Origin: an uncultured bacterium
GTDB lineage: Bacteria; Vulcanimicrobiota; Xenobia; Xenobiales; Xenobiaceae
Length of the DNA stretch: 64,000 nucleotides
Direction: 5' to 3'
NCBI GenBank assembly: GCA_934644775.1
Contig: CAKUDB010000005.1
Coordinates: 51,036 to 115,035 of the forward strand
Position 1 is the first letter of the stretch. The number at the start of each line of letters is the position of its first letter. A program made the translations under genes and the position numbers. Shown here piece by piece: positions 10,890 through 13,077 of the stretch. The notes beneath the pieces are model-generated. The model made no database searches and was not told where the DNA came from. It worked only from the letters and a program-made list of their open reading frames with translations.

Positions 10890-11891
10890 CTATTCTTCAA
10901 AATAGCGACGGGCTCCCAAAAAGCGATATTTTACCGCATAACTGCTGTTATCTAAAGAGCTCAGCCCTACTCCATACTTACCGGAAGCGTCCCAAAATTG
11001 GCCATTTCCTACATATAAGCCTACATGGACAATATGATCTTCATCTTTACCAAAAAAGACTAAATCGCCCGCCGTCAGCTCTTCTCGGCTGACAGGTAGA
11101 CCGACGTCGAATTGTTGGTCGGCGTCGCGAGGAACGATCAAGCCATGCAATTTGCAACTTACATAAACTAACCCAGAGCAATCTATACCGTGACAACTCA
11201 AGCCGCCCCAAAGATAAGCTACTCCCTTAAAGCGGCGAGCCGTTTGCAAAAGGCTCTTTCCTCGAGCAGGTAAAGTTTCTCTCGATCCAGCTGCGTAGGG
11301 TAAATATACCGCCGACTCGGTGTGGGGCCAATTTACGCTCCAGTAGCGAGCACCGTCGTGGCCTTGTATAGGTTGTTCTTGGCGCAAAGATAAAATAGTA
11401 GAAGCGAAAACCCGCCCTTTTACTTTACTTTTTTTATCTGGATCGGCATAGACATAAGCTTGGGGGCAAACTACTAATAAGGCCGAGCGCTCATCTTCTA
11501 AAGACCAAGGGCGCAAAGTCGGCTGAGCGCTGTTAATAAGTTTGGGTAAAGGGACGGCAAAAGGAGCTTTTTTGGTTAAATAACGGCTATTAACCCAGCC
11601 GGGATAACCTTCCGCTTCTCGATACTGGTTAGGTACGACCACTTCTTTCCAATGTCCGTCCTCAGTTTCATTTACTGCATAAACCGGCTCGCCCAAGAGC
11701 ACTTGGGTCTCTCGCTCCGAATCGTCATAAATATCAGCAAAGACACTTACCACCGGAACTGACACAAAATACAATTCGCCTTTACCCTCACCGGCCATAA
11801 CTTCTCCTCGAATGGCAACTATAGCTAAAACCAAAATAAAGAGGGCTCTTTGAAGCCATAATAGCCAACTTTGCCCCTCAATAAAGCTCAC
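10890..11891 (-). CDS. NlpC/P60 (C40) family cell-wall peptidase with an N-terminal signal/TM and an SH3-like region
   Basis: The C-terminal NlpC/P60 core reads GVAYLWGGLSCHGIDCSGLVYV...HVGLYVGNGQFWDAS (Cys-His catalytic pair). Confidence 0.75.
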   Translation of the reverse strand: MSFIEGQSWLLWLQRALFILVLAIVAIRGEVMAGEGKGELYFVSVPVVSVFADIYDDSERETQVLLGEPVYAVNETEDGHWKEVVVPNQYREAEGYPGWVNSRYLTKKAPFAVPLPKLINSAQPTLRPWSLEDERSALLVVCPQAYVYADPDKKSKVKGRVFASTILSLRQEQPIQGHDGARYWSVNWPHTESAVYLPYAAGSRETLPARGKSLLQTARRFKGVAYLWGGLSCHGIDCSGLVYVSCKLHGLIVPRDADQQFDVGLPVSREELTAGDLVFFGKDEDHIVHVGLYVGNGQFWDASGKYGVGLSSLDNSSYAVKYRFLGARRYFEE

Positions 11892-11892
11892 T

Positions 11893-13077
11893 TTAGAGAC
11901 CGACTTTTTGGCGAGCAGGAATCTTTAATTGATCGCCAGGGACGATATGATCGTAGTAAGGAGCGGGCAATTTGTTAAATTTTCCTAGAGCTTTGCACAC
12001 TTTGGGATCGGTAGTCGAATAATATTTTTCAGCGATACTAGAAATAGTTTCACCCGATTTCACATTATGAAGGATAACTTTAGAGCCGCTCTGAGCGGCC
12101 TTGGGGGCCTTATCCTCAGACTTAACCTCTTTTTTGTCTTGAGCTTTGTCAGCTGAGTTTTCAACTTTGCCAGAAGGATCGACCACAGCTTCAGTAGTTT
12201 CAACATTAGAAAGGCCCAGCTCCTTATCTAAAACACCTACAGCTTCCAAGTGGCCTTCAATCTCTTTGACCCGCTTTTCCACAGCTTCTACCTGCTGAGA
12301 AATTTGTACTTGATTGGCTAAAACTTCACGCTGATCAACTTTAGCTACAGGAGCCGGACGCAATAATTGTACCAGTAAACAAATGCCCAACAGGACTAAA
12401 ATGGCATAATCGATAGGTCTAATGGCAGGATTGCGCAACATGCGCTGCAATTTTTCTACGCTGCGCTCTAAATAACGGTCGTTGATAAACTCTTCCGGGC
12501 GAGAAGTATCTCGGCTAACTACTGCAGCCGAAGCGGCCGTACTTTTGCCATAAATTCGGAAGCCGCCGCTATTGCGCAAAGTTCCCTCACGCCATAAATA
12601 AAAGCTGCGCTCTCCCACTACCGGATCGACTATATAAATTACTTGCGATTGTTTGGGGAAAAATTTAGCGTGAACTTCTCTTTCAGCTTCAGTAACACTG
12701 CTACCTGTACCGGGGTGAGAGTGGAACCAACCGACTACGCTCATACCAGGGAATTGCTTAGAAGCCTGAGCAAAAGCTTTTTTCCAAACCGATTCGATAA
12801 AGCGACCATTTTGGGCCTTAACTTCGACAGCTTCTTCAATTTTGATCCAGGAATTATCTTTGGTATGACTGCCCAAAAGTAAGCCGGCTTGTTCTTGAGC
12901 GGTATTTTTCAGAGCCAAAGCATTTAAGTTACTAAATAATTGATAGCGCAAATAGATATGCGAAGTTTGCTCAGTTTCAGTACCAACCTGAAAAAAGTCG
13001 CCCGGCTCCAAAGTGGGGGTGACAACACCTATACCCTCTTTGGACATCATAATTTCTTCTCCCACCATTTCCTCCAA
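11893..13077 (-). CDS. MPN/JAMM-like domain, TM helix, coiled coil and a C-terminal LysM domain
   Basis: The MPN-like core contains GWFHSHPGTGSSVTEAE, a near-JAMM HxHx7(S>T)x2(D>E). The TM segment is AILVLLGICLLVQLL. The C-terminal LysM reads HNVKSGETISSIAEKYY...DHIVPGDQLKIP. The gene lies 1 nt from the NlpC/P60 gene. Confidence 0.55.
   Translation of the reverse strand: MEEMVGEEIMMSKEGIGVVTPTLEPGDFFQVGTETEQTSHIYLRYQLFSNLNALALKNTAQEQAGLLLGSHTKDNSWIKIEEAVEVKAQNGRFIESVWKKAFAQASKQFPGMSVVGWFHSHPGTGSSVTEAEREVHAKFFPKQSQVIYIVDPVVGERSFYLWREGTLRNSGGFRIYGKSTAASAAVVSRDTSRPEEFINDRYLERSVEKLQRMLRNPAIRPIDYAILVLLGICLLVQLLRPAPVAKVDQREVLANQVQISQQVEAVEKRVKEIEGHLEAVGVLDKELGLSNVETTEAVVDPSGKVENSADKAQDKKEVKSEDKAPKAAQSGSKVILHNVKSGETISSIAEKYYSTTDPKVCKALGKFNKLPAPYYDHIVPGDQLKIPARQKVGL

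Follow-up and report, generated by a model that had tools for sequence, protein, structure and literature searches.

JAMM peptidases of the Rpn11 type are thought to be dedicated to ubiquitin-like modifiers, and pseudo-enzymes, Rpn8 and CSN6 among them, are frequent in the MPN family. A bacterial operon type that combines genes for a ubiquitin-like protein (Ubl), ThiF, UQ_con and Prok-RING_1 was reportedly noted by Burroughs, Iyer and Aravind in 2011. The RING-containing type of bacterial ubiquitin-like operon is cited as rare and uncharacterised (PMC10557695). A JAB domain is also found in phage lambda, whose K protein itself combines Prok-JAB and NlpC/P60 (Pfam). Among NlpC/P60 peptidases, the YkfC subfamily is defined by Tyr118 in the first SH3b domain together with Asp256, a pair that recognises a free N-terminal L-Ala, with Tyr118 contacting its amine; a YkfC bearing a signal peptide has been proposed to degrade murein peptides outside the cell (PMC2954226). 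Here we describe a locus in which elements of these systems meet. It lies in a stretch of 64,000 nucleotides from an uncultured, gut-associated bacterium of the Xenobiaceae (contig CAKUDB010000005.1, positions 51,036 to 115,035; this whole stretch is called the window), where the gene for a membrane-anchored MPN protein with a LysM domain stands directly between genes for a MalK/UgpC-type ATPase and an exported NlpC/P60 peptidase. How does a homologue of deubiquitinases come to sit next to a murein-peptide hydrolase? What is its function, and is it still an enzyme? Comparison of the locus with its relatives answers the first of these questions in part: the MPN-LysM proteins of the Eremiobacterota are an offshoot of the membrane JABs of Ubl-E1-E2-RING operons and have lost the Ubl-type partners nearby.

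A membrane-anchored JAMM homologue

Databases annotate the MPN protein only as a 'LysM peptidoglycan-binding domain-containing protein'. Its gene and the parts of its product are the following.

11893..13077, minus strand: gene for the JAB/MPN-transmembrane-helix-LysM protein, 394 residues (open reading frame, Pfam)
12544..13005, minus strand: MPN/JAB domain, residues ~25-178, Rpn11-like fold, predicted to be cytoplasmic (AlphaFold2, Foldseek, positive-inside rule)
12892..12894, minus strand: Glu62, equivalent of the JAMM general base, in E-x2-G-L-L-L-G (aligned with Rpn11 EVMGLMLG)
12682..12723, minus strand: variant JAMM motif H119-S-H121-PGTGSSV-T129-EA-E132 (motif strings, alignment)
12433..12492, minus strand: cytoplasmic juxtamembrane helix, residues 196-215, with the clade motif E-R-Y-L-E-R-S-x-E-K (alignment, AlphaFold2)
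12361..12417, minus strand: single transmembrane helix, residues 221-239, N-terminus inside (AlphaFold2, Lys and Arg counts)
12220..12330, minus strand: periplasmic helix, residues 250-286, heptad pattern, conserved E274, L277 and D284 (alignment, AlphaFold2)
12085..12216, minus strand: disordered, poorly conserved linker, residues 288-331, of varying length in the alignment (predicted local distance difference test score, pLDDT, <50)
11908..12078, minus strand: C-terminal LysM, residues 334-390, predicted to be periplasmic and to bind peptidoglycan (Pfam 27.3 bits; beta-alpha-alpha-beta fold in AlphaFold2)

Three Pfam profiles match the protein above their cut-offs: JAB PF01398 (29.9 bits, cut-off 22.5), Prok-JAB PF14464 (26.4, cut-off 25) and LysM (27.3, cut-off 20.9). 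In an AlphaFold2 model made from an alignment of 30 family members, pLDDT averages 77 and exceeds 90 over the MPN domain (residues 25-178), and Foldseek matches this domain to Rpn11, Rpn8, CSN5, BRCC36 and the Caldiarchaeum Rpn11 homologue with template modelling (TM) scores of 0.72-0.75, and to CSN6 chains as well. Sequence and fold taken together give Rpn11, the Caldiarchaeum homologue, Rpn8, CSN5, BRCC36 and AMSH as the best relatives of solved structure. With Rpn11 and the homologue from Caldiarchaeum subterraneum (4o8x, 6fjv, 6fnn), the window protein shares sequence similarity (phmmer E 2.5e-4), the fold (Foldseek E ~1e-9 to 1e-10, root-mean-square deviation ~3 Å) and the layout of an upstream Glu, H-x-H, Ser or Thr and an acidic residue. 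It differs from them in its low identity (15-21%), its membrane anchor and predicted periplasmic LysM, a Glu where they have Asp, and a context that holds neither proteasome nor Ubl genes.

A first-pass annotation of this DNA had proposed an MPN/JAB domain with a near-canonical JAMM motif (Ser replaced by Thr and Asp by Glu), followed by a transmembrane helix, a 'long coiled coil' and a C-terminal LysM domain. Profiles and model keep the N-terminal domain firmly within the MPN/JAB fold, the motif (HSHPGTGSSVTEAE, residues 119-132, pattern H-x-H-x7-T-x2-E) indeed has Thr129 at the Ser position and Glu132 at the Asp position, and the transmembrane helix and LysM are recovered at the residues listed above. 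The coiled coil stands only in part: there is a heptad-patterned helix (residues 250-286), but it is a single one of 37 residues, or about five heptads, with Leu, Ile, Val or Met at 75% of the a and d positions in one register, and it gives way to a linker of 44 residues before LysM that is disordered in the AlphaFold2 model. The annotation had overlooked the upstream catalytic Glu, E62, which lies in the segment QEQAGLLLG and aligns with EVMGLMLG of Rpn11. The protein therefore has the fold and profile match of a JAMM peptidase, the general-base Glu and both His residues, and lacks the canonical Ser and Asp. Thr and Glu are conservative substitutions with which catalysis could still be possible, and the caution that the annotation had voiced about the activity of the site was justified.

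On which side of the inner membrane do these parts lie? The 15 residues before the transmembrane helix hold on average 4.33 Lys and Arg, compared with 2.13 in the 15 residues after it, and the N-terminal side has the larger count in 28 of 30 family members. The N-terminus of the protein has no hydrophobic segment (12-residue hydropathy maximum 0.96, compared with 3.46 in the peptidase). LysM is a peptidoglycan-binding module, and the relatives described below use cytoplasmic E1, E2 and Ubl proteins. Since the positive-inside rule, the lack of an N-terminal hydrophobic segment, the LysM domain and the habits of the relatives all point the same way, the MPN domain is assigned to the cytoplasmic side and the part from the helix to LysM to the periplasmic side. 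A cultured member of the Eremiobacterota is a diderm with a thin peptidoglycan layer (PMC9758169).

Origin among the membrane JABs of ubiquitin-like operons

A genome-wide scan returned 481 relatives. The 80 best-scoring loci were taken further: 7 from the Eremiobacterota clade and 73 from outside it, spread over Planctomycetota, Acidobacteriota, Armatimonadota, Ignavibacteria, Bacillota, Chloroflexota, Verrucomicrobiota and other phyla. The 73 proteins are single-pass membrane proteins with the transmembrane helix near residue 200-250 and the canonical motif GW[YF]H[ST]HPGxGxFLSxxD, and at least 13 of them end in LysM, which is the JAB-transmembrane-LysM architecture of the window protein. 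E1 or E2 is encoded within 8 kb in 68 of the 73 loci, Ubl in 53 and a trypsin-like protease in 29. The operon at L050 (7380..16083, Armatimonadota) illustrates the arrangement: Pfam identifies a trypsin-like protease, ThiF (E1), a JAB-transmembrane-LysM protein, several Prok-RING_1 proteins, UQ_con (E2), a second, soluble JAB and an FHA protein, and an open reading frame for an 89-residue ubiquitin-like protein ending in ITAG sits just upstream of the E1 gene. Membrane JABs from operons of this kind (L050, L070 and, in Bacillota, L008) have MPN domains homologous to that of the window (phmmer E 1e-13 to 1e-23), the same single transmembrane helix at about residue 200-250, the same topology with the N-terminus inside and recurrent trypsin-like proteases nearby. 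The window clade differs from them in having no Ubl, E1, E2, RING or FHA gene nearby, in its Glu ligand, in its ERYLERS helix and in its MalK-type and YkfC-like neighbours.

The neighbour-joining tree of MPN domains shows the Eremiobacterota sequences as one clade nested among E1-linked JABs, and the nearest neighbours of this clade are orphan JAB-transmembrane-helix-LysM proteins of Limnochordales and Bacillota (L028, L030) that keep the Asp. What distinguishes the clade is best seen in the active site. The zinc-ligand position is Glu in all 21 aligned clade members and Asp in all 73 others, and among the top 150 matches of an exhaustive search Glu at this position is limited to the clade-type top group. 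The other residues are mostly kept, with H121 in 21 of 21 members, H119 in 20 and E62 in 19 (the equivalent of E62 is Glu in 73 of 73 outside). The Ser position is occupied by Ser (10), Thr (9), Ala (1) or Gln (1) within the clade and by Ser (71) or Thr (2) outside it. Next to the membrane, the motif E-R-Y-L-E-R-S-x-E-K (residues 200-209) is near-invariant in the clade and absent from the E1-linked relatives. And the Ubl-type partners? The 64-kb window gave no match to E1, E2 or RING (phmmer E<=1) nor to Ubl (hmmsearch E<=10). Searches of the DNA of 12 further clade loci, with flanks of 8-10 kb, gave no Ubl, E1, E2 or RING, and none appears in the Pfam-annotated gene list by which the P0046 locus is represented. 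Two clade-type representatives, P0058 and P0059, read Cys-x-His...Glu, a second ligand substitution; the Cys is a possible metal ligand, so that metal binding may still be allowed.

The family in the strict sense is small. Its closest named homologues, at 76% and 72% identity, belong to Candidatus Bruticola (class Xenobia, phylum Vulcanimicrobiota/Eremiobacterota). Across the operon, a contig from a human-gut collection of metagenome-assembled genomes (L001, CAAGRW010000173.1) shares 94% identity with the window. Its depositors label it 'Candidatus Riflebacteria', which is probably a taxonomic misassignment, since all other close relatives are Eremiobacterota/Xenobia. In a word-indexed search, all 53 clusters found share the architecture of the MPN protein. 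An exhaustive profile search of 1.84 billion representatives gave 108 proteins at E<=1e-30 and 3979 at E<=1e-10, with only about 10 full-length representatives above 370 bits, after which scores fall sharply to ~160-210 bits.

Several observations concern the wider family rather than the clade. The order protease, Ubl, ThiF E1, membrane JAB, Prok-RING_1, UQ_con E2, soluble JAB and FHA recurs across phyla (L050, L070 at 7275..13686, L016, L023, L054 and ~65 others), and one host of such a Ubl-E1-E2-RING operon is the cultured Edaphobacter aggregans DSM 19364 (L070). Outside the Eremiobacterota clade there are also JAB-transmembrane-LysM proteins that lack H-x-H and read H-x-Q, R-S-Q, M-G-Q and the like instead (P0072, P0093, P0119, P0127, P0128, P0148, P0153, P0169, P0185, P0197 and others); they are probable pseudo-JABs that retain the membrane architecture. 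The Bil and Bub operons were considered as relevant relatives and set aside, as their JABs are soluble and they have neither RING nor transmembrane helix (PMC11601596, PMC11601603, PMC10557695). Assignment to a defence system was likewise set aside: PADLOC gave only weak generic JAB matches (best E 8e-6) for the MPN protein and generic ABC matches for the ATPase, and its search of the NlpC/P60 peptidase gave no match. A full-text search of the literature for JAB with LysM and membrane, and for Prok-RING, returned no relevant description, although an earlier account of a LysM-bearing membrane JAB may exist.

The YkfC-like peptidase and the conserved neighbourhood

The gene directly downstream of the MPN gene encodes a second envelope protein, with the features listed here.

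10890..11891, minus strand: gene for the exported SH3b-SH3b-NlpC/P60 protein, 333 residues, YkfC/dipeptidyl-peptidase VI subfamily (open reading frame, Pfam, residue signature)
11790..11891, minus strand: signal peptide or signal anchor, residues 1-34, core ALFILVLAIVAI followed by VMA|GE (hydropathy maximum 3.46 over 12 residues)
11595..11612, minus strand: EGYPGW in the first SH3b domain, with Tyr96 equivalent to Tyr118 of Bacillus cereus YkfC (alignment; PMC2954226)
10929..11225, minus strand: NlpC/P60 catalytic domain, residues 223-321, with Tyr226, Cys238, Asp256, His289 and Asp301 (Pfam, alignment)

Pfam matches the protein to NLPC_P60 with 81.2 bits and adds SH3b matches. It is collinear with B. 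cereus YkfC (3h41) over residues 58-331 (E 4e-28), and also with dipeptidyl-peptidase VI. The likeness to B. cereus YkfC and B. sphaericus dipeptidyl-peptidase VI (3h41, 3npf, 3pvq) extends to the length of 333 residues, the signal peptide and the order SH3b-SH3b-NlpC/P60. The window protein and all 9 of its orthologues have Tyr96 in (E/Q/K)GY(P/R)G(W/F) and Asp256 in PRDADQQ, and the same 10 sequences keep Tyr226, Cys238 and the catalytic His289; all have a hydrophobic N-terminus. The third residue of the triad is less uniform, being Asp301 in the Bruticola lineage and His in 6 of the 10 (elsewhere and deeper in the clade), which sets the window peptidase apart from YkfC, where it is His as in the deeper clade members. 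The window protein thus combines the architecture, the Cys-His-polar triad and the SH3b1 Tyr/Asp256 pair of the YkfC subfamily. This signature indicates action on free murein peptides, and the protein is predicted to be an exported gamma-D-Glu-diamino-acid endopeptidase cleaving L-Ala-gamma-D-Glu|diamino acid. The company it keeps is different from that of YkfC: an MPN-LysM protein and a MalK-type ATPase instead of the YkfB epimerase or a Dpp/Opp transporter. The topology rules predict that the catalytic domains of the MPN protein and of the peptidase face opposite sides of the inner membrane. The first-pass annotation had linked the pair to peptidoglycan stem peptides; this holds for the downstream gene, with its full YkfC signature, while the cytoplasmic MPN domain would not meet the same substrate.

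How closely are the two genes joined? Both open reading frames lie on the minus strand where the first-pass annotation had put them, and its spacing of 1 nt is exact: the junction reads ...GGT CTC TAA a GTG AGC..., with the stop of the MPN gene at 11893-11895 and the GTG start of the peptidase gene at 11891. The other end of the MPN gene is less sharply defined. Its listed start is TTG, with in-frame ATGs 3 and 9-10 codons downstream, and the start is therefore uncertain by up to ~10 codons. The pair is flanked by two further genes.

13186..14367, minus strand: MalK/UgpC-type ABC ATPase, regulatory domains OB_MalK and TOBE, separated from the MPN gene downstream of it by 108 nt (Pfam, NCBIfam)
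9833..10873, plus strand: HtrA-like trypsin-PDZ protease, convergent, 16 nt from the NlpC/P60 stop (Pfam)

A DivIVA-like protein is also encoded upstream of the MPN gene (Pfam). The MalK-like ATPase and the coiled-coil protein that had been named as operon neighbours are therefore both present, the former MalK/UgpC-like and the latter DivIVA-like by Pfam and NCBIfam. Further neighbours in the window are chromosomal housekeeping genes (CoaD, UGPase, FadD, GroEL). A promoter and terminator scan of positions 10700-15200 gave 9 promoter-like signals (5.7 +/- 2.4 in shuffled sequence) and 8 terminator-like signals (4.8 +/- 2.3), with no terminator above chance between the operon genes; counts so near to chance hold no usable signal for the boundaries of the operon.

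Conservation is more informative. The locus was compared in 14 clade genomes of 35-94% identity (the window, L001-L007, L081-L083, L085, L086 and the P0046 locus). In 13 of the 14 a SH3b-NlpC/P60 gene is found no more than 2.5 kb from the MPN gene, and in 11 it abuts that gene downstream on the same strand; since this holds across 35-94% identity the adjacency is not due to chance. In L004 (11186..13202) the NlpC/P60 gene is adjacent but inverted, overlapping the end of the HtrA gene, and in L086 (9636..12302) a HemolysinCabind gene is inserted between the two. The linkage of the MalK/UgpC-type ATPase to the MPN gene equals that of the peptidase in tightness and breadth, a point that had escaped the first-pass annotation: the ATPase is encoded directly upstream on the same strand in 13 of the 14 genomes, with gene boundaries that abut or overlap in L005, L006, L081, L082 and L085. 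Outside the clade, neither an NlpC/P60 nor a MalK-type neighbour occurs in any of the 73 relatives. An HtrA-type trypsin-PDZ gene is found within ~4 kb in 11 of the 14 genomes. As it might be a remnant of the trypsin-like protease of the ancestral E1 operon, the HtrA neighbour was compared with the L050 protease, against which it scores 135 bits, no more than generic trypsin-domain similarity. Across the rearranged loci (L004, L086, L003 and P0046), the constant element is the MPN gene.

The ATPase belongs to the UgpC subfamily (NCBIfam, 463.8 bits, cut-off 432), with ABC_tran, OB_MalK and TOBE_2 intact in Pfam, and is distant from the FtsE profile (156 bits, cut-off 265). ATPases of the MalK/UgpC type normally power ABC importers of sugars, and their genes often lie away from those of the permeases. 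Within ~8 kb on either side of the window gene, and in the annotated loci L081-L083, L085 and L086, there are no permease or solute-binding genes, and the pattern is that of an 'orphan' ATPase. Directly after the aromatic residue of the A-loop there is a clade-specific insertion of 22 residues (~19-41, DGWAPNPEHKAWYQFWKPSRLPNQ) with a conserved W-[YW]-x-[FL]-W-[KR]. Of 9 full-length clade orthologues 8 have this insertion, L081 being the one that lacks it, and the MPN protein could dock there.

Further genes of the region were noted as well. A protein of 1263 residues (4789..8580, plus strand) has ~25-30 tandem Pro/Gln-rich units of ~22 residues (TLGAQPYQPRxATALGAQPQAQQQ(K/R)AxAP), after which come a transmembrane segment, a C-terminal globular region and a tail rich in Lys. 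Large counterparts stand in the same position, after DUF493-MgtC-HtrA, in L004 (1016 residues) and L086 (616 residues). The DUF493 protein (8637..9026, plus strand) has a His/Cys-rich N-terminal extension (HRQHKHDEHCHCGCHDHKHEE), similar to that of the L004 orthologue, and its gene adjoins MgtC, with which it may form a metal-related pair. In deeper clade members a ~153-residue unannotated gene with a weak DsrE match recurs a few kb from the operon, paired with a family-2 glycosyltransferase gene (L081 3313..4586, L082 3445..4619, L083 13390..14618, L085 6408..7615 and the P0046 locus); the pair is not seen in the annotated stretch of the window.

Possible roles of the operon

What might an MPN protein that has left its Ubl partners do between an ATPase and a murein-peptide hydrolase? 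The reading we prefer, to which we give about an even chance, is that of an envelope operon specific to the phylum, whose repurposed membrane deubiquitinase homologue would connect the turnover of murein peptides in the periplasm with the cytoplasm; genomic context is the basis for this coupling. The operon would be a module for envelope maintenance and murein-peptide turnover. In the periplasm, the exported YkfC-like enzyme would trim free stem peptides, with their free N-terminal L-Ala, that amidases had released earlier. The MPN-LysM protein would act as a transmembrane hub tethered to the sacculus through LysM, and its periplasmic helix would probably position or regulate the peptidase. 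On the inner side, the JAMM domain and the invariant ERYLERS helix would probably still carry out metal-dependent peptide or isopeptide hydrolysis on a cytoplasmic substrate, serve as a dock for the co-translated ATPase, or do both. Wall turnover outside would in this way be coupled to an ATP-dependent process inside, and the ancestral deubiquitinase role would have been lost or changed. Whether the JAMM site still catalyses is close to an even question on the sequence evidence. The retention of its ligands over a phylum-deep clade, with H121 and E132 invariant, supports an active site. Several points weigh against the proposal. The closest named relatives, two Ca. Bruticola proteins, have Ala in place of E62, constraint on the Ser position is relaxed, two clade members carry Tyr or Arg where H119 stands, and pseudo-JAB relatives occur elsewhere in the family; this weaker constraint on the active site makes a non-catalytic role plausible. 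L003 has no peptidase gene and the P0046 locus no MalK-like gene. ATPases of this type are often distant from their permeases, and the MalK linkage could thus reflect shared regulation only. Physical contact among ATPase, MPN protein and peptidase is inferred from genomic context, and E1, E2 or Ubl genes could lie beyond the searched flanks and window.

This last point matters for one alternative, namely that the protein is an ordinary membrane deubiquitinase that deconjugates or processes a Ubl, with Ubl, E1, E2 and perhaps RING encoded elsewhere, and that its placement between MalK-type and YkfC-like genes is synteny without coupling. The Ubl, E1 and E2 linkage of the wider family, the Rpn11-like fold and the mostly kept catalytic residues speak for it, as do the orphan JAB-transmembrane-LysM genes of Limnochordales and Bacillota (L028, L030), which have the canonical Asp with no E1 or E2 nearby. 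We nevertheless regard it as unlikely. None of the 14 clade genomes encodes Ubl, E1, E2 or RING in the regions searched, be it the 8-10 kb flanks, the 64-kb window or the gene list of P0046, and no E1-linked locus among the best 80 of the 481 relatives is labelled Eremiobacterota. The invariant change from Asp to Glu suggests that the function has changed, as does the ERYLERS helix, which is new and invariant, and drift is a poor explanation for gene overlaps with MalK and peptidase in members that are just 35-45% identical. Has the domain then become inert? An inert pseudo-JAB, whose MPN domain only binds a partner or a metal, might serve as a scaffold at the inner membrane through which the exported peptidase, and maybe HtrA as well, is tethered to peptidoglycan. 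The relaxed Ser position, the occasional losses of E62 and H119, the JAB-transmembrane-LysM lineages without H-x-H and the presence of Rpn8 and CSN6 chains, themselves pseudo-enzymes, among the fold matches all fit such a role. It is quite unlikely all the same: over a phylum-deep clade H121 and E132 do not vary at all and conservation of H119 and E62 is at least 90%, the His-to-Cys swaps keep a plausible ligand, and the window protein has catalytically competent residues at all five motif positions.

Other explanations give the three gene products a tighter mechanical or enzymatic partnership. FtsEX systems that control hydrolases consist of the FtsE ATPase and the four-transmembrane FtsX and have the coiled coil on the hydrolase. 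By analogy, FtsEX-CwlO, FtsEX-RipC and FtsEX-PcsB share with the operon an ABC ATPase, a membrane protein, an extracytoplasmic coiled coil and a hydrolase of NlpC/P60 or CHAP type. Sitting on the cytoplasmic MPN domain and the ERYLERS helix, a MalK-like dimer might accordingly use ATP hydrolysis to switch the periplasmic NlpC/P60 enzyme on and off through the transmembrane helix and coiled coil. Such mechanotransmission would fit the conserved gene order, in which the ATPase comes before a membrane protein whose coiled coil is periplasmic and then the NlpC/P60 hydrolase, and the coupled gene boundaries; the ATPase insertion and the invariant juxtamembrane helix could form the interface, and the DivIVA-like neighbour fits a theme of morphogenesis. 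The parts differ, however. The ATPase is a bona fide CUT1/UgpC-type importer ATPase (463.8 bits against the cut-off of 432) and not FtsE-like, the membrane partner is single-pass with no polytopic FtsX-like protein in sight, and the coiled coil is on the membrane protein, the hydrolase having SH3b domains instead. Moreover, the YkfC signature denotes free peptides and not the intact sacculus, so that no tight spatial control would be needed, and the P0046 locus has no ATPase while the L081 ATPase has no insertion. This makes direct mechanical switching very unlikely. Only slightly less doubtful is a bolder version in which the former deubiquitinase is a trans-envelope coupler, its JAMM domain and ERYLERS helix engaging a permease-less MalK dimer and its coiled coil and LysM controlling or feeding the endopeptidase; this could work in analogy to FtsEX, or with the JAMM domain as a cytoplasmic isopeptidase on imported cross-linked murein peptides. 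The remaining proposal is that of the first-pass annotation, which had seen in the two genes a split gpK-like pairing, with JAB and NlpC/P60 acting jointly on peptidoglycan cross-links or stem peptides. Lambda gpK does hold the same two superfamily domains side by side, and the genes here are 1 nt apart in a conserved adjacency. Yet gpK is one fused polypeptide in one compartment with a JAB of the Prok-JAB type, whereas the window has two chromosomal genes with no phage tail module, an Rpn11-type JAB with relatives in Ubl operons, and a cytoplasmic MPN domain set against an exported peptidase; on opposite sides of the membrane, the two catalytic domains cannot act on a common substrate in the manner of gpK. 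Homology to gpK was rejected: hhalign of the family profile against lambda K reached a probability of 6.9% over just 36 columns around the motif, and the MPN region has no match in PHROGs, where lambda K finds its own families, phrog_30 and phrog_28576, at ~1e-131. The NlpC/P60 parts of the window protein and lambda K are marginally similar (BLASTP E 0.033), and an NlpC/P60 neighbour is found in 0 of the 73 relatives outside the clade. The pairing as a split gpK does not hold up and joint action is highly improbable; as judged from these comparisons, JAB and NlpC/P60 came together here independently of gpK.

The preferred reading, an envelope operon around a repurposed deubiquitinase homologue, is testable in principle, as the Eremiobacterota have a cultured member. 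For the biology of the family, the periplasmic LysM on membrane JABs ties the uncharacterised Ubl-E1-E2-RING systems physically to the cell wall and is a lead to their function. For the Eremiobacterota, a phylum-wide clade appears to have left the Ubl system, keeping most of the active site, swapping one ligand invariantly from Asp to Glu and becoming fixed in an operon with an ABC ATPase and a hydrolase of wall peptides. Should the coupling prove real, the clade would be a natural experiment on how far JAMM sites tolerate changes in their ligands, and its operon would represent a new way to link peptidoglycan turnover in the periplasm with chemistry in the cytoplasm.

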